This document shows, piece after piece, positions 429 to 25,558 of a stretch of 64,000 nt of DNA; positions within the stretch are counted from its first letter, which is position 1, and every line of letters starts with the position of its first letter. The stretch is taken from IMG/VR virus record IMGVR_UViG_2675903516_000002; one strand, given 5' to 3'. Below the pieces are notes generated by a model. That model was not told where the DNA came from, ran no database searches, and was given only the letters and a program-made list of their open reading frames with translations. The position numbers and the translations under genes are program-made. Origin of the DNA: an uncultured virus (IMG/VR IMGVR_UViG_2675903516_000002). Its lineage: Duplodnaviria; Heunggongvirae; Uroviricota; Caudoviricetes.

Positions 429-453
429 AATTGTATTCCTATTAAGTTATTTG

Positions 454-1158
454 TTAGGCATAGCCGAGTGAGGCTTTGTAGTACTGGTCATACAGTGATG
501 TTTCTATATAAGCGCAACCTTTAGAAAATCCATCTGCGGAGCCGCCACCCGCGCTCTGGGAAATTTGCCTGAACACTGGGGTAATAATGCCGGACGAAAA
601 ACCTGTGAAGCAAAACAGAAAAATAAGTGCGGTCGGTGGGTTTGTCCCAGGAATACCTTGAGTTAGCTGCCTTGCTACTGAACAAATTGTGGCACATGGC
701 ATTGTGGGTGCAGGCGTCGTTAACTGTGGGCGCTCCCAAAACTTGATATCTAGCGGTAGGCAATTACCCGTATAAACGAGCTGCCCGTCCTTGTAGAAGT
801 AAATCCCCCACTCTGGGATGTTGGCTACAAATTCTGAGAACACATAAAATCGGATGGTGTGAGCTAATCCCGCTGTACCCGCTGTCGTGTGTACCCGCCA
901 AAAGCCATTCGGGCCTTGTTCGGCGTAGTGAAGAACGCCACCGCTAGCGCCTTGCTGGCTCCCAGTTGATAGTATCTTATGGAAAATGAAACACTTTTTG
1001 GCGTTTGGGACGATAGTTTCGTAATAATGCTGGGCTGATACATCGCCGGTGTAGTCTGCCGTCCTGTCCATCACCTGCACTAATACTGTGGGCGTAAACT
1101 CAGGGGAGGCAAATATCACCCCATCATCACGCGTTATTTGCATGCCAAAGCCGTCCAT
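454..1158 (-). CDS. Tail-tip-associated protein downstream of J
   Basis: MDGFGMQITRDDG and WGIYFYKDGQLVY motifs typical of post-J genes; coupled to upstream ORF. Confidence 0.6.
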   Translation of the reverse strand: MDGFGMQITRDDGVIFASPEFTPTVLVQVMDRTADYTGDVSAQHYYETIVPNAKKCFIFHKILSTGSQQGASGGVLHYAEQGPNGFWRVHTTAGTAGLAHTIRFYVFSEFVANIPEWGIYFYKDGQLVYTGNCLPLDIKFWERPQLTTPAPTMPCATICSVARQLTQGIPGTNPPTALIFLFCFTGFSSGIITPVFRQISQSAGGGSADGFSKGCAYIETSLYDQYYKASLGYA

Positions 1159-1424
1159 TACACTACCCACACGATTATTGAGTTACCCGCGGCGTTTGAC
1201 CACGAGACAGTTCCACCAGAGACAGACACGACTGCTTCTGTTGCAAATGACCCCGCTGTCGTGAAATAAGCTTTAGCCCGAAGGCTTTTTCCAGCAGGCA
1301 CGGTATACGATCGTGAGCCGCTATTGTTCCCAATAAAATAATCCATCATATAAGCAGGGAGAAACGCATTAATCACATCAAATGTACCGCCAGGCATAAA
1401 TAGTTGAGCACCCCATTTAGACAT
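1158..1424 (-). CDS. Small tail-tip-associated protein
   Basis: 88 aa, MSKWGAQLF start, immediately after J. Confidence 0.6.
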   Translation of the reverse strand: MSKWGAQLFMPGGTFDVINAFLPAYMMDYFIGNNSGSRSYTVPAGKSLRAKAYFTTAGSFATEAVVSVSGGTVSWSNAAGNSIIVWVV

Positions 1425-1426: not shown

Positions 1427-4400
1427 TTACACCTCCAGTTTTTTCCCAATAACGACGACGATTTGATCACTTTCATTAAATACTGTGATTCGGTTATTAA
1501 CTAACCTCAGTTTCCCTTCGCCAGCAACAGCGCCATTCATTTCAAATGAACCATCCGCAGCCATTCTCGTTCCCGTTTTGCCCGAAACAAAATTAGCTGA
1601 TTTCCATTCACCAATTTTTGCCAGAGTAATTGAGGCGTAATTAATGAATGCCTCATTAATAAACGTCTGCCCATTCTCTATTGCGAATGCAAGTTTATAA
1701 CTGTTATCGCTTGGGTTATAAACACCGAAAGTATTTGCGGAAAATAGAACCTGACTTGTCCAGTTGGCACCATCAAATTCGACCCCTATCGCCATTCCTG
1801 CTGATTTATATACCCCATTAAATTCAGCTCCAACTTTAAGCGTAGTAATGGCGCTGCCCGTACCATCAACTTTAACAACCGTTTCTGCTCGTCGTTCAAT
1901 AGCGGCTGAGTTTTCACCGACCTGTGATTGAACACCTTCAATTATTGTTGCTGTTGCTGCAAGTTCAGTAATAACTGTTTGACGTATATCGAATATTTCA
2001 GCCCTGAAATCACCGTTTTGTTTCTTCCAACGATGAACATCAGCATCATTAGCTAGAGCATTTTCAATAATTGCTTCAGCATTCATATCCAGATCGGATG
2101 ACAATTGCCCGAAGGTTTCTGATCCCTTTATAGCCTGGTCAATGTAATCAATCATGCCGGGAATATCTGACGATGCTACACCGGAGGCTTCAACAAACTC
2201 AGAAACACCAAACGCATTACGAGTCCTGACGTAAACATAATAAGTCGTGTCAGCCTTGAGCCCGTTCAGCGCCCATTGAGTTGAACGTCCTAAAAACTGA
2301 GCCTCACTTTCAATATTTGTCGCACTAGATGCTGGTATTTCTCCTGTCCACCAAAACTCAAAGGTAGTATCTGTTGTGGCTGTAATATTCATTACCGGCA
2401 CAACATCAGCAGAAAATACCCCAGGAGTCCATCTAACAGAAGATGGCATAGGGGGCACACCAATGAGCAAGCTGACCTGTGTTTCTGCGCCCTTCATACC
2501 ATTATCATTGCGTCCACGAACACCAAGAGAATATGTTCCGGCTGGGATGCCAAAGAAGTTATAGCGGAATTGAACTGTTTCGTATTGAGCGAATACTGCT
2601 CCATCCAAGGTATAGACCAACAGCTCAAACACCAGTTTTCTGGTTGTAGTGGCGGTTTCCCACGAAGCGCTTACTTGAACAGTTTCACTGTTCGTATTGA
2701 TGACCCGAAGATTCTCAATATTTGGGACACGATAGCCATTTAGTGTATCTGAAGGGACATCAAATACGGCTCCTTCGTCAACGATGGCTTGCTTATTGGG
2801 GTTATGCAACGTTGCAGATATGCTGTAGATAGAGTTATTTTCATCTTCAGAAATCCCCATTATGCGAAACAACCGCGTAGCTACTTCACTGGTTGAAATT
2901 GCAAACGTAGTACCATCTCTAACCCAGGCTGGAGCCACTTTCAGCGTGATAGTAGAACCATTAACTGAGGCAATTTCATATTTAGTGAACTTCGCGTTAG
3001 CGCCCATGATAGACATGGTGTCGCCATTCCCAGCCAATGTGGACACATCGGCATCAACATTGATCACTACGCCACTGTGACTAACTATACGTCCACCGAG
3101 CCTGGTTGCTGCTCGGTTGTTATCCATTAACTCAATGATGTCGCCTGGGATAAACCCAATAGCATCCCGCGCCATACGAAACGTTACTTTGTCCTTTTCA
3201 AGTTTGGCGCTTTCAACCAACCATTTTGCTGTCCTACGGGCCTGACCGCGTGACGTACAACCAAAGGCTTCAATGGTGGTCTCGTTGTATGCACCACTGC
3301 TGCTGATCATCTCATCATCAGAGTAGTATTCTTTCACTTGTTCCCAACCGTTATTGGGATCAGTCCAAGATACAACCACCGCGTTGTATCGCTCTGAGCG
3401 CTTCATTGCGCTATAAGTGAATAGCCCATCAACGACGCTGGCATTCGTTACAACAGCTACCGGGTCTTGTGGTCGGTCGATCATGATGGAAAAGCGCATG
3501 CCATCCCACAAAGCAATGCCGCGAAACATGCCCGCAATATCATCCAGCAGTTCGCGCGCGCTCTTCTGCTCGGTGATGTAGGCATTTAAGGTAAAGCGCG
3601 GTTCTTCTCCGCCGAAACCATCTTCTACTTTTTGATCACAGAACTGTGATAGTACGTACAGGCTGCCGTCATCAACATCAACGTATCCAGCGCGACGAGC
3701 CAACCCATAGCGCGTATTTTTAACCAACATGCGGAATATCCACGCCGGATTATTAGTCCATGCAGATTTGAAGCCACCTAACCAAAGCCCGGTATATGTG
3801 CGGGTTATTGGGTCATAATTATCGGGAACATCAACAATTATCCCTCTCAGATGGGAGGTTCGATTCGGTGTGTCGGTGTACTGGTCTCGGTCAATAACGG
3901 CACCACAAACAGCGGTGTATGGGTAAGAAAGGTTATCGTCAATGATTTCAGTGTAGCTATTCCACGCAGTGCCATTATTTAGAAGGTCACTCGTGCTATC
4001 TGGAGTTACGCGGCGCACACGGATATCAAATGGCTTGGTCTCTGGGGCATCAATAACATGGGCCTCCAGATATTCACCTGAAATCTTGCCTGTGATCGTT
4101 ACCGTTTTTATCGGCGTAAATGCACCATTTCCCACCCTTGTCTCAATAACCATCGTTACCGAGGTATTTCTTTGGTTACCCTGTGTATCCTGCTCAACCA
4201 AGGCATTAACGCCCACATTAAGCCGAACGCGCGTTACGTTATTATCAGTAACCGTGCGCACCAGAGGAGTGGCCTGCGTAACGTCTGTATTAACAATAGT
4301 GGTGGACTCTATAGCAGAGAAACCATTGATTGGGAGCTGCGTTGCTGATCCTGGGCGCCAAGCGACACTCACACCAGGGACACTGACGACACCGGTATTA

Positions 4401-4567
4401 TTGGTAATTGGCGTTTTATTCAATCTGAATGAGGAGAGGTGTTCCTGATCTACTGGGCCGTAAATTGGCCCCTCAGAAATAATGTCCAGAACGCGATAGA
4501 ACTGCTTTGACGTGAGGTTGTCATTAATAAGTGTTGGCGTACTTCCGCCACCGCCGCCTGAACTCAT
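1427..4567 (-). CDS. J: Tail tip / host specificity protein (lambda J-like)
   Basis: 1046 aa; ISEGPIYG, WTNNPAW, EPRFTLNAYI, AFGCTSRGQARR motifs. Confidence 0.95.
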   Translation of the reverse strand: MSSGGGGGSTPTLINDNLTSKQFYRVLDIISEGPIYGPVDQEHLSSFRLNKTPITNNTGVVSVPGVSVAWRPGSATQLPINGFSAIESTTIVNTDVTQATPLVRTVTDNNVTRVRLNVGVNALVEQDTQGNQRNTSVTMVIETRVGNGAFTPIKTVTITGKISGEYLEAHVIDAPETKPFDIRVRRVTPDSTSDLLNNGTAWNSYTEIIDDNLSYPYTAVCGAVIDRDQYTDTPNRTSHLRGIIVDVPDNYDPITRTYTGLWLGGFKSAWTNNPAWIFRMLVKNTRYGLARRAGYVDVDDGSLYVLSQFCDQKVEDGFGGEEPRFTLNAYITEQKSARELLDDIAGMFRGIALWDGMRFSIMIDRPQDPVAVVTNASVVDGLFTYSAMKRSERYNAVVVSWTDPNNGWEQVKEYYSDDEMISSSGAYNETTIEAFGCTSRGQARRTAKWLVESAKLEKDKVTFRMARDAIGFIPGDIIELMDNNRAATRLGGRIVSHSGVVINVDADVSTLAGNGDTMSIMGANAKFTKYEIASVNGSTITLKVAPAWVRDGTTFAISTSEVATRLFRIMGISEDENNSIYSISATLHNPNKQAIVDEGAVFDVPSDTLNGYRVPNIENLRVINTNSETVQVSASWETATTTRKLVFELLVYTLDGAVFAQYETVQFRYNFFGIPAGTYSLGVRGRNDNGMKGAETQVSLLIGVPPMPSSVRWTPGVFSADVVPVMNITATTDTTFEFWWTGEIPASSATNIESEAQFLGRSTQWALNGLKADTTYYVYVRTRNAFGVSEFVEASGVASSDIPGMIDYIDQAIKGSETFGQLSSDLDMNAEAIIENALANDADVHRWKKQNGDFRAEIFDIRQTVITELAATATIIEGVQSQVGENSAAIERRAETVVKVDGTGSAITTLKVGAEFNGVYKSAGMAIGVEFDGANWTSQVLFSANTFGVYNPSDNSYKLAFAIENGQTFINEAFINYASITLAKIGEWKSANFVSGKTGTRMAADGSFEMNGAVAGEGKLRLVNNRITVFNESDQIVVVIGKKLEV

Positions 4568-4576
4568 ATTTTCACC

Positions 4577-6476: not shown

Positions 6477-6603
6477 GACTAACTCCCATTTAAAAAGCCA
6501 CCCAAAGGTGGCTACTGTCTGAATATCAGAGGTTATCTGAGTTGCATATGATAATGTTGGCCCCAGAGAACTTAGACATTTGCTGTCCGAGAGAGGAACC
6601 TAG

Positions 6604-7158: not shown

Positions 7159-7171
7159 TTTCGCCAGAGCA

Positions 7172-7525
7172 CTACCGCGGAACTTGTTCAAATGTGGCGG
7201 CAAGTTCAAACAATATACCGGTCTTTGTCAAACTCCAGGAGCGACAGACAAACATCTTCTGCACCCCCGTATCAGGTGGTGTCCAGTAGAATGCCTCCAC
7301 AGACATTCGATTTTTGATAAATGCCTCAGCAGCTTTCGCAGCGTTTGGACGGTTACATTTACTGTCATCAATCCCTTTAAATGTCAGCGAGTAACTATCC
7401 ATCAGCGGATTAATGCCTTTAACTTGCCGCTGTTCGTAACCATCGCCAAGTTTAACGACGGCAACATTTGGCGCGCGGGAAGCCGTGAAGCCTTTTTGTG
7501 GGCTCCATGTGAATGTTTCTGGCAT
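7172..7525 (-). CDS. M: Minor tail protein (lambda M-like)
   Basis: ETFTWSP, GDGYEQR, AFYWTPP, ATFEQV motifs. Confidence 0.93.
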   Translation of the reverse strand: MPETFTWSPQKGFTASRAPNVAVVKLGDGYEQRQVKGINPLMDSYSLTFKGIDDSKCNRPNAAKAAEAFIKNRMSVEAFYWTPPDTGVQKMFVCRSWSLTKTGILFELAATFEQVPR

Positions 7526-7537
7526 GGGGTTTTCCTG

Positions 7538-10500
7538 TTACTTGCGGAGTAAGCCGTTTGGCCGCTGCTGGTCTTTAATGGTGTTAAGGCTGACTGTCTT
7601 CATCATTGCAGCCATTTTCTGCATTGTGGCGTCATCGATGCCGTTAGTCGTCTCGATGTGGAAATGAATTTCCTGCTGAACAACTGTGCCAGCACCACCA
7701 CTCCCACCCTGCATATCCTTATTGCTGATGACCTTGCCATTATCGCCGGGGATCATGTATTGCTTGCCGGTTCCCGCCTGGTATATCTCAGGTGCACCGC
7801 CCTCACCGACTCGATACATTTCGCCTGCTGATACAGGGCCTCCGTTTTTACGCGCGCCAGCCATGGCCAGTCCCTTAGACGCTGCTAGCGCTGTGCCATA
7901 AGCAGTGGTACCGACCGTAGAAGCTCCGCCCATTGTCGCGATGGAGGCGCTCACTGCCGCTGGTGCCCATGCCGCCGCTGCTGCGGTTGCCTGTGCTGCT
8001 GTTGCAGCAAGAGCAGTAGTAGCCGCCGCCTGCCCCATAATCATATTTTTGACCTGCTGCATACCCATTTGGACTAATGCATTAACACCCTCTTGGATTA
8101 TTGTTGCAGCAAGATTCTTCATAGCCTCTTCTGCTGACTGAGTACCCGTCAGAAGCCCAGTCAGCATATTGGTTGTGCGCTGACCTAAAGCATTAATGGA
8201 GCTCGCTAAATATTGGTTGGATTGGCTTTGGTTCCTCCATATTTCCCACTGAGCAGCTAGTCGAGCTTGTTCATACTGGGTATTGGCGGCATTGCGAAGA
8301 GCTAGTGCCTGCTGCTCAGTTAGCGTTTTATCCTCTTCAAATTTTTGAATCAGTGCTAACTTTTGAGCGTTTTCATTAGCCAACGCCTGCACCGGGTCAA
8401 CTAATGCGGCATTTTGCTGTTGTGGCATTACTGCGCTGGCGGCTGATGCCTCGGCAATAGCTCTGGAGTAGTCAGCGGATATTTGAGCACGACGTTGCTG
8501 TGACTGTTCGAAAGATATATCACCTGCCGCGAGCTGTCGGTCTAACTGTGATAAATCCAACTTACGTTGCTGCTCGGCCTTGGCGACACTATCAGCATCG
8601 ATCGCAGCCTTTTTATCAGCTATGCGTTGTTGAATATCAAATATCTGACCGGCTTGTTGTGTGGCCTGCTGGATCTGCTGCTGAGACGCGCCTGAACCTA
8701 AGTCCTGAACAGCAGCAAGTTGCGCGGCTTCACGATTGAGTCCTTTTGTCTTTAATTCAGCAACGGCCATTTCATTGCTTAAATCCTGCAATGATTTAAC
8801 CCGGCGTTTCTCTGCTGCTTCGGCGGCGGTTTCTTCCTTCGTGGCTGCGGCAGTTTCCTTTTTCAGCGCAGCCTGTGCAACTTGCTTATCATAAGCGGCA
8901 CCAGCCTGTTCGCGGCCAATTCTGACAGTATTGTCATCAGCATTAATAGCTCGAAGTTCTTGCTCTGTTTTTAGTTGTGCGCGCTTACGTAAGTCTGTTT
9001 CAGCAAGCAATTCATTTTGTTGGTATAGGTCATCTAAAACCTTTTGTGCTTTTGGGTCTCGTTGAATGGATAAGCTAGTTGAGTTAAACCGCTCTTTGGC
9101 CCCACTAGCGACGTTAATTGCTTGTCCTAACTTATTCATCATTCCAGCGACAACGCCCGCTTCCTGACCATCTCTTCTGAGGAGATCTATTCCTTCAAGC
9201 AAAGTTCCATTTAATGCAGCTCTGCCGATATTTACAGCGTTTTGTGTCTTATCTACTCTATTTTGTGCAATTGAAAGTTCATTGGCTGCAATCGCAAGCC
9301 TGTCTTGAGCACCAGTTAACGCCTCTGCCGCTTGTCGTCCCGTTGTCGTATTTAACCCGTAATCTTTTATTACTTTAGTGTAATTACTGACGCTATAAGC
9401 AGCGTTGTCATAGGCTTCTTGGGCCACTGCCAATGATTTATTTAATATTGGCATTGATGAATTGAGTTTTGCTATTTCAGCACCAAGCTGAACGTTACTC
9501 ATCTCTTTCATTTTTCCGACTAAAGCAGATACTCCGTCAGCAAGTTCATTAGCCTCTTTCTTGGCTTCCTGTGCTTTTTGGTAGAAATAGAATATTGCCC
9601 CGGCCGCTAATGTAGCTGCTCCAACAGGACCACCGACTAACGACAAAGCACCACGCAACAAGCCACCAGATATAGATGCCGCAGAGGCCGCCGCAGACGC
9701 TTGCTTTTGAGCCAAGACGTTAGCAACAAGCGCCCGATTATAATTACCAGTAGCAGTTGCTGCCTCAAGGCGAGCAGCCGATAATCTCACTTCGGCTGCT
9801 GTCGAGTTTGCAGCATTGAATGCACTCGCCTTTTGCATCTGCGCGAGTGTTATCTCCTCAATTGCTCTGACTTTCGCTGACTGAGCCGCAATAAGGTTAG
9901 CTACTGACTGATTAGCTGCGGCCTGTGCTGCAAGATTGTCAGCCAAAGCAGCTTGACGCGCTGATGATGCTTTTTGCACCTGAGCCGCCGATGCTAATGT
10001 GAGTGCAGCAACGTAGCGAGAACCGATTATTCCTGCAACAACACCAATAACAGTAGCGATCGATTCAAGGTTTTCACTGAGTGAAATAACTGATGAATTA
10101 AATACATTCAATGTTGTATTGACTGAAGATGATTCACCAACAAATTTAGTAATGTTATTAGAAGCAACGGTAAATGCCTGCCCCATAGTGAGAACGGTAT
10201 TGCCGAACTCTTTGGCGATCGCATCGCTTTGCTTCAGCAGTCCATTAACAACAACGTCGGTTGTTAACTTACCTTCAGCCGCCATAGCGCGTAGCTGACC
10301 AACGGTAACGCCGAGTGAATCAGCCAAACCAACGGCCAACCGGCTGCCGTTCTCTGAAATAGAGTTAAACTCTTCCCCGCGCAGCACACCAGAAGCTAAT
10401 GCTTGTGAAAGCTGGATCATGGTCGAACTGGCTTCTTCGGCCGTTGCGCCGGAAACTACCAACCCCTTGTTAATCGTGGTTGTTAATTTGGCTAGGTCTG

Positions 10501-10906
10501 CCGTACTGGTTCCCGCACTTCTCGTGGCCCTTTCTAATCGCCCGTATAACGTGGCGGTTGCCTCAAGACCAGCGCGTGTATCCTGAGAAATATCAAATAC
10601 ACGATTAGTTACGGTGAATAAATCTTCATTAGCCCTTACTGCGTTAACCAACTTATTATTTACTGTTACCCATGCATTTCCGTATTCGGCAACCTGCTGG
10701 ACTGACAACGCGGTTGCTAATGAGGTTGCCACACGACTTAACGAAAACATGGACTTTTCAGCGCGTTCAACTGACTTTGCAGTTGAATCAAATTTCCCTT
10801 CCATCTGATCAAGACGACTATTTACCTGTTGCTGTGACGTGATCAGCTTGCCTAATTCCATGTCTACCTGATAGACAATCCCGCCCACATCTTTTCCATC
10901 AGACAT
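7538..10906 (-). CDS. Tape measure protein
   Basis: 1122 aa Ala-rich; QLSQALASGVLRGEEFNSI motif; C-terminal GGPV...YRVGE. Confidence 0.95.
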   Translation of the reverse strand: MSDGKDVGGIVYQVDMELGKLITSQQQVNSRLDQMEGKFDSTAKSVERAEKSMFSLSRVATSLATALSVQQVAEYGNAWVTVNNKLVNAVRANEDLFTVTNRVFDISQDTRAGLEATATLYGRLERATRSAGTSTADLAKLTTTINKGLVVSGATAEEASSTMIQLSQALASGVLRGEEFNSISENGSRLAVGLADSLGVTVGQLRAMAAEGKLTTDVVVNGLLKQSDAIAKEFGNTVLTMGQAFTVASNNITKFVGESSSVNTTLNVFNSSVISLSENLESIATVIGVVAGIIGSRYVAALTLASAAQVQKASSARQAALADNLAAQAAANQSVANLIAAQSAKVRAIEEITLAQMQKASAFNAANSTAAEVRLSAARLEAATATGNYNRALVANVLAQKQASAAASAASISGGLLRGALSLVGGPVGAATLAAGAIFYFYQKAQEAKKEANELADGVSALVGKMKEMSNVQLGAEIAKLNSSMPILNKSLAVAQEAYDNAAYSVSNYTKVIKDYGLNTTTGRQAAEALTGAQDRLAIAANELSIAQNRVDKTQNAVNIGRAALNGTLLEGIDLLRRDGQEAGVVAGMMNKLGQAINVASGAKERFNSTSLSIQRDPKAQKVLDDLYQQNELLAETDLRKRAQLKTEQELRAINADDNTVRIGREQAGAAYDKQVAQAALKKETAAATKEETAAEAAEKRRVKSLQDLSNEMAVAELKTKGLNREAAQLAAVQDLGSGASQQQIQQATQQAGQIFDIQQRIADKKAAIDADSVAKAEQQRKLDLSQLDRQLAAGDISFEQSQQRRAQISADYSRAIAEASAASAVMPQQQNAALVDPVQALANENAQKLALIQKFEEDKTLTEQQALALRNAANTQYEQARLAAQWEIWRNQSQSNQYLASSINALGQRTTNMLTGLLTGTQSAEEAMKNLAATIIQEGVNALVQMGMQQVKNMIMGQAAATTALAATAAQATAAAAAWAPAAVSASIATMGGASTVGTTAYGTALAASKGLAMAGARKNGGPVSAGEMYRVGEGGAPEIYQAGTGKQYMIPGDNGKVISNKDMQGGSGGAGTVVQQEIHFHIETTNGIDDATMQKMAAMMKTVSLNTIKDQQRPNGLLRK

Positions 10907-11588
10907 TCTTCGCTAGCCTCGCCTTTTCTTGAGCAATTAAACGTTCCTGGAGGCGATCATCAGCATCCATGATTTCATCGTATTCTTCGCGGGTGAATCC
11001 TTTATCTTCTGGGTACTTAGCTTTGAGCAGCAACTGAAACTCGGTCATCGTTAACTGCTCGGCTTCAGCGCGGGACATGTTGAAATGAATTCTGGCTGAG
11101 TTGATATAATCCATTGCATTAAATTCGTTGCTGTAATCGTTGTTACCTTCATTCTTTTGTAGCTTTCTTATTTTGGCTTTGCCGATCACACCATGTTCAA
11201 TTAATTCTCTCGCAATGGTAATCACTGTTTCTTTTGAAACTTTGCCAGGCCGGTAAACAATACAATTTCGCCACCCTTTAAACTCGCCTATAAGCGCCGA
11301 TGCCGACTTATCACAACAAGCCTCGATAACTCTTATGGCCGCAGCCAACATATGCTCTGAGCATTTTTTGATTGCATTATTGGGCATTAATGATGCTGGC
11401 AGATTAGCGTTTATTGCAGGTGTTAATACCTGACTTAATTCAGAGCCACCCAGCAGCGCGTATATTTCGACTATCTCGGCCGCCGCCCCTATTTTTGTCA
11501 TATTCCTTAGTGATGGACGAAAGAAATAATCTTGCTGTTGCTCCGTGTCAGACAGGAGCATTTCGCCAATATCAAGCATCGGTGTCAT
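10899..11588 (-). CDS. Tail assembly chaperone
   Basis: Directly upstream of tape measure; EAEQLTMTEFQLLLKAKYP motif. Confidence 0.75.
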   Translation of the reverse strand: MTPMLDIGEMLLSDTEQQQDYFFRPSLRNMTKIGAAAEIVEIYALLGGSELSQVLTPAINANLPASLMPNNAIKKCSEHMLAAAIRVIEACCDKSASALIGEFKGWRNCIVYRPGKVSKETVITIARELIEHGVIGKAKIRKLQKNEGNNDYSNEFNAMDYINSARIHFNMSRAEAEQLTMTEFQLLLKAKYPEDKGFTREEYDEIMDADDRLQERLIAQEKARLAKNV

Positions 11589-11663
11589 GGGGTGTCCTGA
11601 AATTTAGGTAATAAAGAAACCCACAGTTAAGTGGGTTGGGTTTTGGTCGTAGGACTTAACTAA

Positions 11664-11741
11664 TTAAGCAACTTCAGCGCCGTGGATCAGGTGGCGCAGA
11701 GCTTCTACCACGTTAGCGTTGTAGCGGAACGCCTCAACTTG
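11664..11741 (-). pseudogene. 3' remnant of a phage antirepressor-like gene
   Basis: Translates QVEAFRYNANVVEALRHLIHGAEVA*, recalled as an antirepressor C-terminus; no 5' part present. Confidence 0.5.
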
Positions 11742-12003
11742 CCCTGTCAGCTGGATCCAAGAGGCGACAATAACTATCCAATTCACCGGTGTAATACCGA
11801 CGCCGAAGGAGGTATTTCGTAATTCGTCAGGTGATTTTTATCGCTGCTCTTGTGAATTGATCGATGATAATGGGAAAAGTTATACAACAAGTAATTATGG
11901 TTTTTGTAAGTTGCACTCACCACATAAAGAATTTAAGCGATTCACTGGTTAGGTAGAAAGAAAAATCCAATACGGATTCAACACAATAATAAGGGAAAAG
12001 AAT

Positions 12004-12189
12004 ATGGGCGAGTAGAACAAATCACTGTTTATAGTCATATGGATAATTACGTTCTTCCCATGCTACAGGATGGCAAGAAAAACTGGGTTTGGGTGGCCTA
12101 TGGCTATCTTGTTGTCCATTCCCGTTATCCACTACATAACACTATACTTCTTCGCTTTCAGAAAGTGGCCGACTTTGCCTAACGCATAA
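12004..12189 (+). pseudogene. Small two-TM membrane protein with in-frame TAG at codon 4
   Basis: MGE*NKSLFIVIWIITFFPCYRMARKTGFGWPMAILLSIPVIHYITLYFFAFRKWPTLPNA*; purine-rich RBS upstream. Confidence 0.6.
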
Positions 12190-12210
12190 CAGAAAGCCAG
12201 CCTGAGTGGG

Positions 12211-12444
12211 CTAATCAGTCTTTGTAGTTCTTTTCTTATAGACGCTTCTTATTATTCCTAACGCTGTAAATACAACCCCAAGAAAGATTAAGAGAGCACC
12301 ATAACGAATGTGATTTTCCCTTGCGGCTATCAGAAAAATGTTATCTACGCACTGCTGATCAATCAGTACGCAAGTGGACATGTTATACGCTATTATTGAC
12401 CATACAACCCCTGCAATCAATGCACCCAAACCCCAAGTCGTCAT
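12211..12444 (-). CDS. Small two-TM membrane protein (moron)
   Basis: MTTWGLGALIAGVVWSIIAY...YGALLIFLGVVFTALGII. Confidence 0.7.
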   Translation of the reverse strand: MTTWGLGALIAGVVWSIIAYNMSTCVLIDQQCVDNIFLIAARENHIRYGALLIFLGVVFTALGIIRSVYKKRTTKTD

Positions 12445-12509
12445 ATCCCATCCTTTTATGGTCTTTCGACATTTTAAATAAGCAAAAACCCGCCGGAGCG
12501 GGCTTGAAG

Positions 12510-12860
12510 TCAACTACCGTTGCGTTTTTTCGCAATATATTCCCCAATATTATTGGTTAGACTTTCACGAACTTTGACAATGGCTTGATCTCTTATGGTC
12601 GTTATAGCTTGCTTTTGATTATCGTCTAATTCTTCCCACTGAGATGCATCAGGGCCAATAGAATCATGATATTTATTCAATTCATCATCACAATGCCGAA
12701 ACGCCTTTGAGGAAATATCTGCGGTAGGGGCTGATGTGCCGGCTTGCGTATCTGCATAACTGAAAATGCATTTGCTCAAGCTTTCAGCTGTTTTTTCTAA
12801 ATCACTCGCATTCGCCCCAAAACAAACTAAAAACACTAAACTAATTATTCTTAAGTTCAT
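12510..12860 (-). CDS. Secreted helical protein (moron)
   Basis: Signal peptide MNLRIISLVFLVCFGANA; paired Cys; downstream hairpin. Confidence 0.7.
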   Translation of the reverse strand: MNLRIISLVFLVCFGANASDLEKTAESLSKCIFSYADTQAGTSAPTADISSKAFRHCDDELNKYHDSIGPDASQWEELDDNQKQAITTIRDQAIVKVRESLTNNIGEYIAKKRNGS

Positions 12861-12924
12861 ATGCGCATCCAATCGACAAAACCGCCAAAATCCTACCACG
12901 ACATTTTCTATAGCTACAATTGCT

Positions 12925-13155
12925 ATATAACAGAGAAAGGAATCGATTTCCTTCTAGATGATGGCGGGCTGAGTGCGATATTGAACGTTCAAACAGACTT
13001 ACTCAAGACAGACACGACTTCGCAAAAGCGCTAAATCAAAAACCTATATTCGAAAAGCTCAAGCAAGAACTCACTGACGCCCCATTTGATTTAGTTAAAG
13101 ACATTAGTAAAACGTGGCTAACCAAGCAAATAAAAGACAGGCTTGGCTTGATAGA
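12925..13155 (+). pseudogene. Fused remnants of two cargo genes
   Basis: ITEKGIDFLLDDGGLSAILNVQT, then in another frame RLTQDRHDFAKALNQKPIFEKLK (DUF2513-like C-terminus); no start. Confidence 0.45.
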
Positions 13156-13207
13156 TTCAGATATAGCTGAAGCTAGAACACAAAGACTCGCACTCGACGG
13201 GTTGTTT

Positions 13208-13759
13208 AGCGCACGGACGCGTTAGAAAGCAAAGCCCATTTCGGGTTTTGCTTGTGTAGGTACTATTATTTACTCTTCAAGATACCTACCACTTATCTCA
13301 TCCAATGCACAGGAAAGCATCTTAACTGCCCTGCATTGCCTGTCTTTCCCGGCACTTCTGTTGAATGGCGACTTACAAAACTGACTCATTTTCCCAGCCC
13401 AGTAAGCTTTAACTATTGAGGAGTCCACCAGCTTTATACATGCAGTATGTTCTTTCACGGAATAACTACGAATACATGCTGCTTCTGATACCAGAGCTAT
13501 CGCAGGTACTGGCATATTTTCATTTATCGGAGAGGAAACAGAAAACGCCGGACTTGATATAAGTAAGATGCTTAGAAGTAATTTCATGTTAATTCCTTGT
13601 GTAAAACATGTGAAATATAAAACTACCTCCTAATTAACTAAACTTCATATTAAGAATATTCCGTGCAAATATTACGATGTAAAAAAAAGTGTACGGTGAA
13701 GGAAACAAAAACCAACTGAGCGGTTGGTTTTTCAGTGTACGGACGCGCCAGAAAGCAAA
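13208..13759 (+). repeat. 26-bp direct repeats (13208-13233, 13734-13759) flanking a moron
   Basis: agcgcacggacgcgttagaaagcaaa vs agtgtacggacgcgccagaaagcaaa, 22/26 identical. Confidence 0.8.
13270..13587 (-). CDS. Secreted Cys-rich protein (moron)
   Basis: Signal peptide MKLLLSILLISSPAFS; five Cys; AAGGA RBS. Confidence 0.75.
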   Translation of the reverse strand: MKLLLSILLISSPAFSVSSPINENMPVPAIALVSEAACIRSYSVKEHTACIKLVDSSIVKAYWAGKMSQFCKSPFNRSAGKDRQCRAVKMLSCALDEISGRYLEE

Positions 13760-13798
13760 AGACCCGCATTCAACGGGTCTAATTTTGCATCTGCTGCC

Positions 13799-14146
13799 TT
13801 ACTTCGGCTTCTTGTAGTTTATGGTGACTTCCATTCCACTGGTTGGCTTATTGGGTTCATACTTCCATTTGTAGATAGAATCTAAGGCTGATTTCTCAAA
13901 GAGATTTCTCGGCTCAGCTTCAACCACCTTTGCATTCTCAACTTTTCCGGCAGCGTTAATATCATAAGCAATCTTCACATACCCTTCTTTATCGTGCACC
14001 CAGGCGCGGGAAGGATATATTTCAATATTTCGCTCAATTAACTGCGGGGCATTGTTATTTGAAACTAAATCATTCGCATTTGCTGTAATTTGAAAAAGAG
14101 ACGAAAAGCACAATGCCAGAAGCCCAATCTTCATTTTATTTTTCAT
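13799..14146 (-). CDS. Secreted stand-alone TonB C-terminal domain protein
   Basis: Signal peptide ending ANA, then YPSRA...EGYVKIAYDINAAGKVENAKVVEAEPRNLFEKSALDSIYKWKYEP. Confidence 0.88.
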   Translation of the reverse strand: MKNKMKIGLLALCFSSLFQITANANDLVSNNNAPQLIERNIEIYPSRAWVHDKEGYVKIAYDINAAGKVENAKVVEAEPRNLFEKSALDSIYKWKYEPNKPTSGMEVTINYKKPK

Positions 14147-14305
14147 GAATTTATCGCCTTTCTTATTTGTATAATTAACGATAGCAGTAATAAAGATAAG
14201 GGTATAATTGGTAATGCAGATCAATATCGCAATATTGATCGCTTAAAACGATCAACTTTTAAATAATCATCATCAAGAGCACCAATAAGATGCTCTTTGT
14301 GAGAA

Positions 14306-15055
14306 TTATGCGGTGATAGTAATATTACTCGTTCCGGTTTTAGCGCCATCATTCGTTGTGAATGTGATAGTCGCTGTACCGACTGCAACGCGGGTGACTA
14401 AACCCGTTGAGCTAACCGTTGCTTTGGTTGCGTCAGAGGTTGTCCATACACCAGTTTTATCAGTAGCGTCCGCAGGTAGAACGGTCGCGGTAAGCTGAAC
14501 TGTTGCAGCGACCGCGCCAATACTGGTTGCCGGAGCCACAGTTACGCCGGCAACTGGAATCGCCGAGCCATCAACGAAAGTGACAGAATCTGCATCAGCA
14601 ACTTTCCACTCACCGGAGTAAGTAGCGAAGTCAGAAGAACCGAAATCTGAACTCCATGAAGTGGTATTGAAGTAACCCTGAATATAGGTGCCATCATCCA
14701 CGCCGAGGAAATCAAAGCGAACCCATAGACCCGGCTGGCGGCCTGCCTGAACTTCATCGAAAATGTATTTCGACATTTTTACCGGGCCGACTTCCGTAGA
14801 CTTGGCTCGCTTCCGCCACTCGCCCTCACCTGAAATGGTCAAGTCCATGTTAGTGACCAGGTTCTCTACCAGCCCTTTTGCGTCATCCGCATCGGAAGAA
14901 ATGGTATTCATCGAGTAGTCGAGACCCTTGGTAGTCAGCGCACCCATGCGCTGCCAATCTGCCACTTCTGGTACTGTTTCAGGACAGCCAAACGCCATCC
15001 GTAAAACGGCGACGCGACCAACCAGCTTGCCGTAATCATTTTGGCAACCTTGCAT
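14306..15055 (-). CDS. Major tail tube protein with C-terminal Ig-like domain
   Basis: C-terminal TVQLTATVLPADATDKTGVWTTSD...GTATITFTT Ig-like motif; synteny. Confidence 0.9.
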   Translation of the reverse strand: MQGCQNDYGKLVGRVAVLRMAFGCPETVPEVADWQRMGALTTKGLDYSMNTISSDADDAKGLVENLVTNMDLTISGEGEWRKRAKSTEVGPVKMSKYIFDEVQAGRQPGLWVRFDFLGVDDGTYIQGYFNTTSWSSDFGSSDFATYSGEWKVADADSVTFVDGSAIPVAGVTVAPATSIGAVAATVQLTATVLPADATDKTGVWTTSDATKATVSSTGLVTRVAVGTATITFTTNDGAKTGTSNITITA

Positions 15056-15079
15056 ATTTTTTACCTCTGTTAGTTCGGC

Positions 15080-15463
15080 TTAGTCGCCGTATTTAATTGC
15101 GAATTGAAGTCTGTAGACCAAGCGGCCTTCAGTGGTTGTTACGGGGGATGGGATACTGCCGAGGTTTTCAATATAGCCAATGCAGTCATTCGGATTTGGA
15201 TTGGCCTGAACGTGCGCGATTATTGCCTGTGCTGCATTATCCGCCGCTTCATCCTCGTTAACCGCGCCAATCACATCAACCAGGACGTAATACTCACTGC
15301 CAAGGTCGTTGCGAATTGAACTGCCGCCGTTGGGCCGAAAAACAATAAACTGCTCTGTCAGCTTGCCGGTATCACGCCATTTGAGCATTTGAGTAGCGAA
15401 AGCAGTAGTTAACCCAGACTCGACAAAGTAATCGCGAACACGCCGGTGCATTGATGGAGTCAT
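15080..15463 (-). CDS. Tail terminator/completion protein
   Basis: Position before tail tube gene. Confidence 0.7.
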   Translation of the reverse strand: MTPSMHRRVRDYFVESGLTTAFATQMLKWRDTGKLTEQFIVFRPNGGSSIRNDLGSEYYVLVDVIGAVNEDEAADNAAQAIIAHVQANPNPNDCIGYIENLGSIPSPVTTTEGRLVYRLQFAIKYGD

Positions 15464-15828
15464 AGCTTCATTTCCTCCATAATTGCCTTTTCAATGGCTT
15501 GTTTACTATCCGCGAAACCTTTCGTAAGAAACTCTTTCTCAGCCATTGGCCTACGGAATACCTGCTTAACATTCGGATCGTGGACATATATCGCGTAATT
15601 AGCCGAATAGCCCACGCGCCCAGTCAGCCTGGTGCCATTCGCGCTGATATCACGAAACTGAGAATTGATAAGGGTTGATGTATCGATGGGGGTATAGAGT
15701 GCAGCCTGTGACGCTCCGATAATTAACGCCTTAGTCATCGCCCTGACAGCTTTCCGGCCTTGAATATCATTAATCAGCCTATTCAGATTAGCTTTAGCCT
15801 CTCTGATGCCTTTAACCTTCGCGCCCAT
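15460..15828 (-). CDS. HK97 gp10-like neck protein
   Basis: TPIDTSTLINS...VGYSANYAIYVH...FL motif. Confidence 0.8.
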   Translation of the reverse strand: MGAKVKGIREAKANLNRLINDIQGRKAVRAMTKALIIGASQAALYTPIDTSTLINSQFRDISANGTRLTGRVGYSANYAIYVHDPNVKQVFRRPMAEKEFLTKGFADSKQAIEKAIMEEMKL

Positions 15829-15829
15829 G

Positions 15830-16180
15830 TCAGACTCCCGTGATAATTGCGAAGTCGTCCGCAATGCGCTCGAATGTGTCAGCGTAACGAATGATATGCC
15901 TTACTTCGTCCGCGCCATCCACCTTGGTCGGGTCAGTCGCTACCGAATCGCCAATCAGGATATAGTCGCCCCGCTCAGCTTCGGCATACTCAGTCCAGTG
16001 CGTGTTTTTGATAACGAACTCTAAACCGAGTCCACCCAACTTCGCCGTAGCATCACCGCCGTAATCACACATGAGCTGAATAGGAGGTAGCCAAGCCTGC
16101 TTACCATAATCATCTGGCTTCCCGTTCTTCTTCCATAAAGTAGCGGTTGCCGTATAACTCCAGCTTGCGGCGCTGCTCAT
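15830..16180 (-). CDS. Head-tail adaptor/closure protein
   Basis: Synteny in neck module. Confidence 0.65.
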   Translation of the reverse strand: MSSAASWSYTATATLWKKNGKPDDYGKQAWLPPIQLMCDYGGDATAKLGGLGLEFVIKNTHWTEYAEAERGDYILIGDSVATDPTKVDGADEVRHIIRYADTFERIADDFAIITGV

Positions 16181-16491
16181 AAGTGGTACCGCTCATACTG
16201 GTATGGTTCGCATTCTTTACAGCCAACGACTGTGAATCCTGACAGCTGTTTGTCATCACCATAAATTGCAGCAAGATATCCAGTGCCAGGCGCTGCCAAT
16301 CCATTAAGTATCCCGACTGTGCCCACTGTTAAAACTCCTTGAGAGCCCCGACCTAACATAATCGGACAGTCTGATGATGCCATGACTTCATTAACAATGA
16401 CTCGGCTGGAAATAATGGACTCAACAGCTACTGGGTCAGACTTGAACATCATATTCATCAAGTCAGCGAGTTTTTTTGCTTCAATCATCAT
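16177..16491 (-). CDS. Hypothetical protein, homolog of 52472-52861
   Basis: Coupled ORF inside neck module; by-eye alignment to the P2-like gene. Confidence 0.75.
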   Translation of the reverse strand: MMIEAKKLADLMNMMFKSDPVAVESIISSRVIVNEVMASSDCPIMLGRGSQGVLTVGTVGILNGLAAPGTGYLAAIYGDDKQLSGFTVVGCKECEPYQYERYHL

Positions 16492-16862
16492 CAGCCTCCC
16501 ACCACATCAAAAAAACCAACCGATACGCCCACATCAATCGGTAGCGAACCTGTGCAACCAGCCGTATCTAGCGCCACCAAGCTATTTCGCATTGTCTTGA
16601 TATCACCACCATAATCGAATGACCGCCCCGCCCCTGAAGGCGCTGACTGAGACTTAATGCGCTGATTGAAAGCAGTAACCGCCATGAGGGTGACGGCATA
16701 CATCTGAATCAGCATCAAATCACATTCGTCGTAGCCAGCCGCCTCCAGGCACTGACTTATGCTTTCCAGTTTGCAAAGGTAGGCATCAATCATGAAATCA
16801 GGAATGGTGTAACCAAGCGCAGACAACTGCTGTTTAACCTGCGCGGCTGTTATCTGCGCCAT
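16491..16862 (-). CDS. Head-tail connector protein
   Basis: IKSQSAPSGAGRSFDY motif; synteny. Confidence 0.7.
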   Translation of the reverse strand: MAQITAAQVKQQLSALGYTIPDFMIDAYLCKLESISQCLEAAGYDECDLMLIQMYAVTLMAVTAFNQRIKSQSAPSGAGRSFDYGGDIKTMRNSLVALDTAGCTGSLPIDVGVSVGFFDVVGG

Positions 16863-16864
16863 AC

Positions 16865-17230
16865 TTACTTATCCTTTTTCGTTGCCGCAGCTAAAGCTGC
16901 TTCTGCGTCTTCTGCTCGCTTGGTTACCTGAGCGATAGCCTCAGCGTGTGCTGCTTCTGCGTCTTCGGATGCCGTGGTGAGTTCATCGATTCGGCCCAAT
17001 GCCTCATCAAGCTGGACTTGCAGCACGCTTCCATTGCTAACTGACACGGACGGCGTAGCCACTTCAAATACCAGCTTCTCGCCTTTCTTCTCTGTAGACT
17101 TCTCAGCCTTGCCACTTTCAATCCACTTCCCGGCAATCGCATCATCAACTTCGTAAGACTGGCCAACCTCCAATTTCTGGAAGCTGGCACCGGCGAAAAG
17201 GTTTGCTACTAAAACTTTTACAAGTGCCAT
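16865..17230 (-). CDS. Head accessory/hypothetical protein with coiled coil
   Basis: ORF directly after capsid gene. Confidence 0.6.
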   Translation of the reverse strand: MALVKVLVANLFAGASFQKLEVGQSYEVDDAIAGKWIESGKAEKSTEKKGEKLVFEVATPSVSVSNGSVLQVQLDEALGRIDELTTASEDAEAAHAEAIAQVTKRAEDAEAALAAATKKDK

Positions 17231-17239
17231 GATTTTTCC

Positions 17240-18316
17240 TTAGCTGGATGCGTGGATGACAGAGAAGTGACCGTTAATGTCCTGCTTAACCATCAGGCCA
17301 GCAGCACCCCATGAGCGCCACACGTAGTCCGAGTTGTAGAACTGGCGAGGATCGGCAACTGTACCGAATGCCTGCCCAACGATGGGAGCGATGACACCGG
17401 CTTGCAGAGGAACAATCACGATTTCGTTGCCAGTCAGTTCAACATCTTCTTTGATGGCTGAGATACCAGATAACTTCATGATTTCTTCCAGCACTGTACG
17501 GGTCGAATTCACATCAAAATACTGTTCCCAGTTAGAGATGATTTCGCTCGATACATACCAGGTCTGTTGTCCGTACTGGAAGTTTTGCAGCTTCAGTACA
17601 TCACGCAAGGCAATTGCACCGCCCCGCATGGCTTTAACATCCGTGCTGGTCGCAAAGTTAACAGTCAGCGTAACTTGGGCGACACGTTCGTCGTGGCGTA
17701 AACCTTTCCAAGTCTTACCATCGAAATTGATGTAGTTGCCTGCCGCGTCGCGGAAGCCTTCCCAGATGTAATCCACATACTGGCGACGAACGTCTTTGAT
17801 AGAGCCAGCCTGAGCATCAGACAAAGAAGCCAGGGCCGAGCCTTTGTTGAATACCGGATCACGCCAATTGAACTTAAAACCGCTGTCATGGATAGGAACC
17901 ATCGTGCCATCGAAGGTGTAGGACTTCGCATCTAGCGCCGCACCAATCTGTCCAGACATCGACGTGTGTGCCCAACCACGCCCGCCAGTACGAGCATACT
18001 CATACACTGATTCCTCCAGACGAACTGAGCGAGACAGCGGCATCAGGTCATTCAACAAAGTGAATTCCGTGTTTGGCTCAAACTCAGACAAAACAGTCTG
18101 ATCGTATGCTTTGTAAAGTCGGCGAATATCATCAACGGCATTCACTGCTGTCAGCTCAGGAGCATCTTCGGCATCGCCACGCCATTTTGTGCGGGCAATA
18201 AAGTCAGCTGCGGCCTGGGCACTGGCATTACGTGCTGAAGTCAACTTCCTGAACTGAGACGAGTTAACTTCAAGATTGCCAGTCTCAGTGGCTTTCTTCG
18301 TGGAAAATACAAACAT
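17240..18316 (-). CDS. Major capsid protein
   Basis: Start MFVFS after AAGGAG RBS; size and position after decoration gene. Confidence 0.85.
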   Translation of the reverse strand: MFVFSTKKATETGNLEVNSSQFRKLTSARNASAQAAADFIARTKWRGDAEDAPELTAVNAVDDIRRLYKAYDQTVLSEFEPNTEFTLLNDLMPLSRSVRLEESVYEYARTGGRGWAHTSMSGQIGAALDAKSYTFDGTMVPIHDSGFKFNWRDPVFNKGSALASLSDAQAGSIKDVRRQYVDYIWEGFRDAAGNYINFDGKTWKGLRHDERVAQVTLTVNFATSTDVKAMRGGAIALRDVLKLQNFQYGQQTWYVSSEIISNWEQYFDVNSTRTVLEEIMKLSGISAIKEDVELTGNEIVIVPLQAGVIAPIVGQAFGTVADPRQFYNSDYVWRSWGAAGLMVKQDINGHFSVIHASS

Positions 18317-18326
18317 TCGCGGCTCC

Positions 18327-18767
18327 TTACTTAATGACAACGCGCAGGAGCTGGCCTGCTGTCGCAATGGTGTATGAACGGTCTTCTTCTACATAAGCAC
18401 GAGTAGATTCGCCGGTTGCTTTCGCCTTAACTCGTCCATTGACGATAGAGAGAGGCTGGCCTTTGGTGTATGTGCCGGGTGCTGCCGGAACGTTGAAGAA
18501 AACGCCAGGGGTTGGATGCATCGCTACTACCCAATCACCCGCCGCAATGGTGTCATCCACCGTTTTGCAGCGCAGGTAGTCGTAGTTTGCGACATAAAGA
18601 ATTGCGTCTTCGTTGCCATCAACTGAGGCGGTGAATTTCTTCGTAGTGTTATCGAAAAAACCAACTGTTCCCGGTTGGGTTGCCGCTGCTGCCGCACCTT
18701 CACGATGCAACTGCGGATTTGCGAAGATGCCACCCGCGTGGATTACGTGCTTTCCATCTTTAGCCAT
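18327..18767 (-). CDS. Head decoration protein
   Basis: 146 aa between protease/scaffold and capsid genes. Confidence 0.7.
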   Translation of the reverse strand: MAKDGKHVIHAGGIFANPQLHREGAAAAATQPGTVGFFDNTTKKFTASVDGNEDAILYVANYDYLRCKTVDDTIAAGDWVVAMHPTPGVFFNVPAAPGTYTKGQPLSIVNGRVKAKATGESTRAYVEEDRSYTIATAGQLLRVVIK

Positions 18768-18770
18768 TGT

Positions 18771-20168
18771 TTACTCCGGCATTTCGCTAACTGATTGAGA
18801 GGAATTGGCCTGGCGGAAAGAGCCATTCAGACCGGTTGAGGTTGCGCATTGGGCGAATAGCCCATCGAGAGCAGCGCCGTCTAAAGCGTTTACTGCGATA
18901 TCTTCAAGGCCAAACTTAGCTTTAACTGCTGATCGCTTTTCAGTCTTCTCCTTGTCGGAGTTAACGCTCAAGCTATTCACCACTGAATCAACACGATCGG
19001 CGAGTGCTTTAGCCCATAACGGTATCTCTTCACTGTTGGTGGCTTTATCTTTGGTGGTCTTATCATCAGCCTCTTTCTTTTCGCGAACAGCCTTCTCTTC
19101 CGGCGTTTCAGTTTTGATCTTTGCTTCTTCTGCATTCATTTGGTTGTATGCATCAAGCAATTCAGCTTCGGTCTTGCCTTCGGTCGGCTTACCTTTTGCT
19201 TTCAGTGCGTTAACAATCATGTCTTTCATCGGGTTTTCAGCTCCGTTGGTTTTAATTTCGTACTCAGTGGGTTTGCGCACGACTTCTACAGGTTCGCCGA
19301 CGAATTCAGCTGTGCCGTCATCGTCGATGAGGTACTTCTGTTGATATGTTTTGCCTTTATCGTTGTAGATGAACTTGTCCGGCCATACGGAATCAGGCCA
19401 TGAGTAAAAGTCATCAGGCTTACCCTCACGCAGCTTTTGGCTGAGTGCTCGCTGGATGTCATCAAAGGAGTAATTAGAAGCATTAGTGAAGAAGAACTTG
19501 GCTTTATTCAGCAACCCCTCTTCTGTGCAATTGGACGCATCTGCGAGGTTCACGGTTTCTATTTGAAGCTGGTCACCCTGGGCATTAACAAAGATCCCTA
19601 CACCTTCTTGCGTCGTTCCGGCTGGCGTCTCGTGCAACAGGATGGCGCAGTGGTCGTAATCTTGGTTGCGGGCAACCCAGTTATATTTTTTACCCTTGGA
19701 AACTCCTTTCCCTTCCGCTCGATTTAGCCCGAGGCCAGTTGAAACGCCGATCGGCTCAACCTCTTTCCCCCCCTTCATATCATCCAGTCTATTAACGACC
19801 TCTTTGCCCTTATCCGTCGCTTCGGCATAACGGCGGTTAACACACATATCCATCAGTACACGATCGCCGTCTTTACGAACGTTACGGGCGAATGCCCCAA
19901 TGTGATATTCGTTCACGGCCCGCACATTACTTGCGCTGACGTACTGGCCTTCAATCTTCGGATGCCCATACGGCATGGGCTTACCTTCAAGGCTTTTGAA
20001 GCCTTTGGAAATCTCGTCTGCCGGGTACAGTCCGCCATTGAGCACGATATCGTCGATGACAGGACAGACGTCCTTCACAACGATGTGCTCAACGCCATCA
20101 ATGGTTTCAGAAGTGATGTTTGAAGCGGAGTTGATGACCGACAGCACGTTTACGCAGATGCGTGACAT
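18771..20168 (-). CDS. Prohead protease/scaffold (DUF2213-like)
   Basis: DDIVLNGGLYPADEI, GHP, VSTGL, DHCAILL motifs; charged C-terminal part. Confidence 0.8.
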   Translation of the reverse strand: MSRICVNVLSVINSASNITSETIDGVEHIVVKDVCPVIDDIVLNGGLYPADEISKGFKSLEGKPMPYGHPKIEGQYVSASNVRAVNEYHIGAFARNVRKDGDRVLMDMCVNRRYAEATDKGKEVVNRLDDMKGGKEVEPIGVSTGLGLNRAEGKGVSKGKKYNWVARNQDYDHCAILLHETPAGTTQEGVGIFVNAQGDQLQIETVNLADASNCTEEGLLNKAKFFFTNASNYSFDDIQRALSQKLREGKPDDFYSWPDSVWPDKFIYNDKGKTYQQKYLIDDDGTAEFVGEPVEVVRKPTEYEIKTNGAENPMKDMIVNALKAKGKPTEGKTEAELLDAYNQMNAEEAKIKTETPEEKAVREKKEADDKTTKDKATNSEEIPLWAKALADRVDSVVNSLSVNSDKEKTEKRSAVKAKFGLEDIAVNALDGAALDGLFAQCATSTGLNGSFRQANSSQSVSEMPE

Positions 20169-25297: not shown

Positions 25298-25558
25298 TCA
25301 TGTTTTCCTCCCAACGTTCTGGCGCCAGTCAATAACCTCATCAAGCCGACCTTTGCAGATTCGTAGTTCCCGCTTTAGTTCCATCGCGTACAACCCGCCA
25401 TCTCCCCATGTAGTACCGGTAAATTCTGGAACCTCACAAGGGGTAAGCGCTGACTCTGCGGGTAATAATAGGGCTGGTTCGGTAATGGGTGGTTTAACGG
25501 GATTATTCACGCATGACGTTAATGACATCACCAGGCATAGGCTTGATAGCACAATCAT
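25298..25558 (-). CDS. Outer-membrane spanin (Rz1-like)
   Basis: Lipobox LTSC, Pro-rich, overlaps Rz-like gene. Confidence 0.85.
   Translation of the reverse strand: MIVLSSLCLVMSLTSCVNNPVKPPITEPALLLPAESALTPCEVPEFTGTTWGDGGLYAMELKRELRICKGRLDEVIDWRQNVGRKT

Follow-up and report, generated by a model that had tools for sequence, protein, structure and literature searches.

The receptor-blocking exclusion proteins known so far are lipoproteins that each serve a single receptor. Cor (phi80, N15, T1, mEp167), Llp of T5 and Rtp45 are small, exported proteins of this kind that act on the periplasmic face of the receptor, and blocking by Cor has been shown experimentally (PMC13673623). In small siphoviruses, the genes that follow J encode the receptor-binding protein (RBP) and a cognate exclusion protein (PMC8594841; bioRxiv 2026.04.02.716166), and the available portions of PMC13164509, PMC13673623 and bioRxiv 2025.07.22.666180 treat Cor and FhuA without TonB-domain proteins. 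For phage IsaakIselin, AlphaFold2 and Foldseek have led to the proposal that in SIP-1 (QXV80559, bas10_0024) a TonB C-terminus has been repurposed to block superinfection, and AlphaFold2 positions the protein at the periplasmic face of PqqU (PMC12124388). In the accessible text of that source the function of SIP-1 is an AlphaFold2 prediction only; the gene lies at the RBP locus of this lytic phage, which uses PqqU, and its product falls in PHROG 25729, below detection by Pfam TonB_C. As for TonB itself, its strand beta3 pairs with the TonB box of FhuA (PMC11658791), and over-expressing the TonB domain in the periplasm of E. coli inhibits the import of iron (as cited in PMC9841981).

Like SIP-1, the protein described here combines a phage-encoded signal peptide with a TonB C-terminal fold, and we propose for it the same role, namely binding of a transporter from the periplasmic side and a block of superinfection. 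Its gene lies in the window, by which we mean the whole stretch of 64,000 nucleotides of virus record IMGVR_UViG_2675903516_000002 that was analysed, and has the following parts:

13799..14146, minus strand: stand-alone TonB C-terminal-domain gene, an ORF of 115 codons (115 aa), located as a moron within a Yersinia prophage tail operon
13811..14050, minus strand: TonB C-terminal domain, residues 33-112, from alignment and Foldseek
14075..14146, minus strand: predicted signal-peptidase-I leader, residues 1-24, from sequence pattern, low hydropathy, lack of His and low pLDDT; presumably cleaved
13760..13780, minus strand: intrinsic-terminator-like hairpin, 19 nt past the stop of the TonB-domain gene

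The product is a TonB C-terminal domain by profile and by fold. Pfam TonB_C (PF03544) matches residues 44-111 (E 1.8e-14, 54.4 bits against a cut-off of 24.6), and phmmer aligns residues 21-112 of the 115-aa protein without gaps to residues 140-231 of E. coli TonB; identity is ~40% to host TonB and 36-46% to enterobacterial TonB-like domains. The AlphaFold2 model (mean pLDDT 80.7, and 83-97 from residue 31 onward) agrees in Foldseek to an rmsd of 0.8-1.0 A with 1U07, 2GSK_B and 2GRX_C, that is, with free TonB and with TonB bound to BtuB and FhuA, and a fold search with the window protein among viral predicted structures returned no match at E<=0.001. The protein shares the fold and key residues of the host TonB of the TonB-ExbB-ExbD system, retaining in the phmmer alignment R158, Y163, R166, G174, G186, F202, W213 and Y215 of TonB, with Tyr in place of F180 and F230. 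The replacement of Q160, V225 and L229 by I41, E106 and N110 counts against the decoy reading developed below.

At the N-terminus the two proteins part ways. Host TonB (~250 aa) has a His-bearing anchor and a Pro-rich, periplasm-spanning linker, whereas the window protein lacks the linker, has no His in residues 1-40 (one in host TonB) and reaches a best 19-residue hydropathy of 1.29, against 1.86 for a Yersinia host TonB anchor. Its N-terminus carries three lysines and a hydrophobic run of 12 residues, with Ala-Asn-Ala at positions 22-24, a pattern after which leader cleavage would be expected. The conserved anchor His of TonB has a role in energy transduction; with neither that residue nor the linker, the window protein therefore should provide no energy coupling, and it scores far below the cut-offs of the NCBIfam full-length TonB equivalog. 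It is thus not an energy-transducing TonB, nor is it a Cor, having neither Cor homology nor a lipobox, nor a spanin. The ORF, profile, alignment and hydropathy bear out the original prediction of a signal-type leader followed by the TonB C-terminal domain alone, with no anchor or Pro-rich linker; its word "secreted" is better replaced by periplasmic, the destination that a Sec signal would give. A lipoprotein reading was rejected on account of Cys13, which lies outside any lipobox and is replaced by Tyr in the relative from Y. intermedia, and a spanin label on account of the globular TonB fold and the separate spanin-like genes at 25298-25835.

The gene sits in an AT-rich moron block of a lambdoid prophage, between the major tail gene and the tail chaperone, next to these genes:

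14306..15055, minus strand: major tail protein, PHROG 853, the upstream boundary of the moron block
13270..13587, minus strand: neighbouring 105-aa moron of no family, with a signal-like N-terminus, which often co-travels with the TonB-domain gene

Three morons, 13270-13587 (-), 12510-12899 (-) and 12211-12513 (-), lie 3' of the TonB-domain gene and often travel with it; two of them have signal-like N-termini and paired cysteines, and the three have no Pfam or NCBIfam family and a single weak PHROG match among them. The product of 13270-13587 matches no family, with Atlas scores below 0.8, and a PHROG 3983 gene fragment with no clear start lies between the morons at 12911-13200.

Copies of the TonB-domain gene at 75-100% identity occur in 15 viral contigs, and relatives of the protein are found in Yersinia intermedia (75%), Y. 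entomophaga (86%) and Y. massiliensis (90%); the host keeps its own TonB genes alongside the prophage domain. Among the copies listed, the insertion site is after the major tail gene (8), after a K-like gene (4) or between I and J (3), and the carriers span two tail backbones with J proteins ~31% identical. Across 11 compared loci the gene keeps its terminator and ~115-130 nt of the DNA 5' of it, and a hairpin with a T-run stands 3' of it in the alleles compared. The gene is under purifying selection: dN/dS is 0.08-0.14 in six of seven pairs, two of which are identical alleles, and 0.02-0.05 within the domain where computable, the seventh pair having only 4 changes and none in the domain. Furthermore, two RNA-library runs of one sample each yielded a contig of its own, limited to the ORF (13809-14140 and 13797-14132), at depths of 62 and 76, with 18 differences and without the conserved upstream DNA; the other runs among the four compared gave patchy low depth across the region (X1) or zero reads (X20). 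These contigs, which carry no strand or level, suggest a discrete transcript.

The upstream DNA contains a recognizable promoter module:

14170..14255, minus strand: promoter module homologous to the phi80 cor promoter, with two palindromes, a -35 region and an extended -10 at 14186-14178

The 86-nt module shares 77% identity with the phi80 cor promoter across 64 nt, with the extended -10 in the same columns, and colinearity with the phi80 cor annotation (FN582354) would place the start site near 14170; a consensus promoter scan made no call at this promoter. An alternative upstream TTG start (141 aa) was discarded, as it lies 5' of this predicted transcription start and the loci L013-L015 have the 115-aa frame only. 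When a profile made of just three Yersinia copies, with phi80 left out, was scanned over 339 loci (3.7 Mb), the top match beyond the Yersinia copies was phi80 cor (E 6e-8), followed by one unrelated ORF (L130) and then, in 14 loci, by sites upstream of genes of the SIP-1 family (E 3e-4 to 1e-2). A blastn search with the module gave 35 records at E<=1; in three of the four inspected it directly precedes cor (phi80, mEp390, HK225), genes that share with the window gene both the homologous module and the moron layout, and in the fourth an unrelated ORF. Across viral contigs, the exact promoter pattern occurs in 11, all of them carriers of the TonB-domain gene, and the motif was found upstream of none of the 26 TonB genes of the cor slot considered below. 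Given that the hits precede cor genes and also unrelated ORFs, the module appears to be a mobile moron promoter that is much used by exclusion genes and is not exclusive to them; its presence before ORFs unlike exclusion proteins (L130, vB_YenM_29.18) counts against the decoy reading. Those ORFs, in L213/L130 and L341 (vB_YenM_29.18), encode cytoplasmic-looking products of 69 and 75 aa and stand beside tail-fibre genes of Yersinia phages. The two palindromes of the module may bind a regulator.

With respect to the receptor, the relevant genes lie at the other end of the tail operon, 13 kb from the TonB-domain gene, a distance that also counts against the decoy reading:

454..1158, minus strand: phi80 gp23-like RBP, 234 aa, PHROG 425, with BtuB-type RBPs as its nearest characterised relatives
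1158..1424, minus strand: phi80 gp22-like RBP partner, 88 aa, PHROG 557, 31-32% identical to BtuB-type partners
1427..4567, minus strand: central tail tip protein J, from profile matches
429..453, no strand: empty cor slot of 25 nt between the RBP and the side tail fibre, in the gene order of phi80

The best matches of the RBP are Bas06 (E 1e-14, 32%) and Bas04 (8e-11), both BtuB-type, ahead of FhuA-type proteins (1e-8), and in a tree its clade is sister to BtuB-type RBPs (support 92/86), outside the FhuA/Cor group. At only 27-32% identity to BtuB-type RBPs, this placement indicates that the receptor is probably a TonB-dependent transporter, with BtuB or its kin as the best guess; Y. massiliensis has ten such transporters, BtuB among them. 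The FhuA use assumed in the original prediction finds no support in the position of the RBP beside BtuB-type proteins.

The TonB-domain gene is linked to this RBP. Thirteen contigs carry the RBP at 79-100% identity and 10 of them also carry the gene; the others are an 8-kb piece, a remnant cut from its J, and L032, a complete prophage with an RBP 79% identical and no TonB domain, which counts against the linkage. A comparison on the same backbone (gpI at least 91% identical; 18 full-length matches among 77 loci, five of which were dropped as shorter than 10 kb or broken in J) found the gene in 4/4 prophages with the window RBP versus 0/9 with other tips (Fisher p 0.0014, the relatives not being independent); of the nine contigs with other tips three are 53-61% complete, and one below-cut-off TolA-like gene was scored absent. 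L013, in which the gene is paired with an LptD-like RBP, is an exception, and P400 and L183 have related RBPs and an empty cor slot. At L024:9027-10717, an integrase gene of the P2-like type extends into the start of the RBP gene, a second element having apparently inserted in the gp22-like gene.

As predicted from the window alone, no cor is present between 428 and 454: the 25-nt slot holds no gene, phmmer found no match to phi80 Cor in positions 1-20000, and there is no PHROG 1119 match. In other phages this slot is occupied by TonB domains. L133 and L171 encode a 95-aa TonB domain with a signal peptide exactly between the RBP and the tail fibre; the L171 RBP belongs to the same clade as the window RBP (98/94 support), and that of L133 is of the YncD/PqqU type, 36% identical to the IsaakIselin RBP. 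A survey of the best 80 of 180 YncD/PqqU-type RBP loci, ranked by likeness to L133 and hence biased towards it, found directly after the RBP 26 clear TonB domains and 52 PHROG 25729 genes (78/80), no Cor, one locus with neither and one that is cut; among annotated YncD-type phages inspected, 4/8 have no TonB-domain or SIP-1-type gene right after the RBP. The PHROG 25729 profile matches 16/26 of the clear slot TonB domains, and its profile-profile comparison with the window family gives P 63.5 and E 7e-5, which points to a diverged relative of TonB domains. The window protein itself has no direct PHROG 25729 match, only this remote link, and its alignment with the single SIP-1 sequence is weak (P 4.8, E 0.008); unlike SIP-1, it is encoded by a prophage moron away from the slot and accompanies a BtuB-like RBP.

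Characterised BtuB phages already have a Cor-like lipoprotein in use, as do prophages with a fused RBP, which counts against the decoy reading. After J in L135, L136, L169 and L180, the gene for a Cor-like lipoprotein lies antisense behind that for a fused gp22+gp23 RBP (~327 aa) of the window RBP clade, so that the partner of an RBP of this clade can be a Cor-like protein or a TonB domain. HK639 has, at L215:2107-2469 (-), an unannotated 120-aa SIP-1-family lipoprotein gene in antisense directly after a YncD-type RBP. The mutual exclusion with cor that had been anticipated is suggestive: among 50 whole contigs, TonB domains are found in 0/9 with a clear Cor, against a base rate of only 5/50, and one of the 14 contigs with a weak Cor-like gene has both.

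Taken with the fold and the leader, these data make it fairly probable, in our assessment, that the unanchored TonB domain occupies TonB boxes, displaces host TonB and renders the receptor unusable for the tail tip. As a moron of lysogenic conversion, the prophage would express the TonB C-terminal domain from its own cor-type promoter; Sec export and removal of the leader would free the domain into the periplasm, where, without an ExbBD-coupled anchor, it would deliver no energy and yet keep the sheet that pairs with TonB boxes. Such a decoy could bind the periplasmic face of TonB-dependent outer-membrane transporters in place of host TonB and hold them ligand-loaded and closed, or otherwise shifted, so that the tail tip cannot use them. 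Reportedly, a periplasmic C-terminal fragment of TonB inhibits infection by phi80, a finding ascribed to Howard and co-workers in 2001. The main target would be the transporter that is read by the RBP of the phage itself, with BtuB or its kin again as the best guess, and the job would equal that of Cor in FhuA phages, done with an unrelated fold. A PqqU phage with a TonB-fold protein in the slot still infects a tonB deletion strain (PMC12124388), and starvation for TonB energy therefore cannot be the whole mechanism. Moreover, 1000-fold less PQQ blocks IsaakIselin in the tonB deletion strain (PMC12124388), from which we infer that a decoy could achieve exclusion if it trapped the receptor in its ligand-closed state. 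The idea of a superinfection-exclusion decoy is accordingly strengthened by the cor-type promoter, the linkage to one RBP allele and the occupation of the cor slot by TonB domains in other phages, and it has to be detached from FhuA. The concept was already predicted for SIP-1, and the window protein most likely works like Cor and SIP-1.

A rather unlikely alternative keeps the binding to TonB boxes and assigns it to broad protection of the lysogen from unrelated TonB-dependent phages, group B colicins and microcins, and siderophore-mimic antibiotics, the RBP linkage reflecting shared ancestry. It would suit the lipoprotein relatives that follow the lysis genes in lambdoid phages of E. coli and Klebsiella (15 GenBank records), near bor and in phages with a lambda-type J, as in PhiR47_2, which has no gp22/gp23 pair; such a relative, under a generic or wrong label, occurs in 1617/5426 complete E. 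coli genomes (30%), and even a modest effect on phages, colicins or iron uptake would be widespread. The pairing with an LptD-like RBP in L013 fits it too, as does the fact that the window domain is far nearer than SIP-1 to host TonB, as expected of a binder of many transporters. The absence of the gene from all same-backbone prophages with other tips, the slot position of relatives and the cor-type promoter argue for exclusion at the receptor of the phage instead.

We give little credence to a positive modulator of TonB-dependent uptake or phage entry, acting by receptor priming, by periplasmic scavenging of the TonB boxes of colicins that leaves transporters untouched, or by tuning iron uptake. 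Stand-alone TonB domains with signal peptides also occur among unnamed bacterial proteins, so that non-phage roles may exist, and pan-inhibition of iron and B12 uptake would cost the host; against this, a protein without anchor His or linker would have no energy coupling, the unanchored domain cited above inhibits import, and the phage's own virion gains no help in entering a new cell from a gene that is expressed in the resident one. Very improbable, too, is another periplasmic partner reached through the fold common to TonB and TolA, such as filamentous-phage g3p, Tol-dependent colicins or envelope proteins: TolA domain III complexes (2X9A, 3QDR) appear low in the fold search and one related prophage contig ends in a TolA-like lipoprotein gene, whereas both sequence and structure are those of TonB (fold search E 6e-9 versus 0.6 for TolA). 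That lipoprotein-like ORF, of 134 aa with a TolA/TonB_2-like C-terminal domain (L213:5532-5936 (+), at the end of the L130 contig), may be an analogous decoy for Tol or belong to the host. A TonB remnant that decays neutrally and hitch-hikes in the prophage, as the "partial" or "fragment" notes on relatives in GenBank might imply, is largely refuted by the purifying selection, the conserved promoter, leader and terminator, the three insertion sites and the RNA-library contigs.

The lipoproteins of phage 21 (gene 73), JLK-2012 and CP-933N resemble the window protein as exported stand-alone TonB domains of temperate phages in PHROG 1267 and differ from it in their lipobox, their position after Rz/bor, their identity of 27-33% and their separate clade. 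The PHROG 1267 label "Rz-like spanin" is a mis-annotation that hides the family, the members being stand-alone TonB C-terminal domains, often encoded after Rz. The E. coli and Klebsiella proteins are annotated, and the literature searched held no study of them; nor did it hold a description of the window gene beyond bare listings of TonB-like prophage genes, most subscription papers lying outside its scope.

A 40-row tree separates the Yersinia form from the lipoproteins (98/97) and both from the slot proteins (100/98). The slot clade joins enterobacterial TonB at 96/97, and the window protein lies outside the slot clade, which counts against the decoy reading; the alignment has 96 columns and the backbone is without resolution, and several captures of the TonB domain by phages are plausible. 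Possible, if on balance doubtful, is the wider idea that temperate and lytic enterobacterial phages repeatedly captured the TonB C-terminal domain (as the Yersinia periplasmic form, the lysis-region lipoprotein and an RBP-slot form grading into SIP-1) as a dominant-negative decoy for multiple receptors, a second structural class of exclusion beside Cor/Llp that would also alter iron and B12 uptake and sensitivity to TonB-dependent bacteriocins in the lysogen. Should the host TonB domain indeed serve as an inhibitor, it would be a second solution, aimed at a motif common to all TonB-dependent transporters. The proteins would form a natural series from the near-host sequence of the window protein to the specialised, barely recognisable SIP-1, a series that would make the SIP-1 prediction directly testable and show how specificity for one transporter can evolve.

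A second, P2-like prophage adjoins the first at 41129-64000 of the window. Two integrase genes, 41129-42145 (+) and 43436-44467 (-), lie around a cargo gene for 324 aa (42450-43424), and the integrase type seen at L024 also flanks this prophage. Its cargo at 44766-45650 and 62264-63415 is, we presume from resemblance, defence-like.
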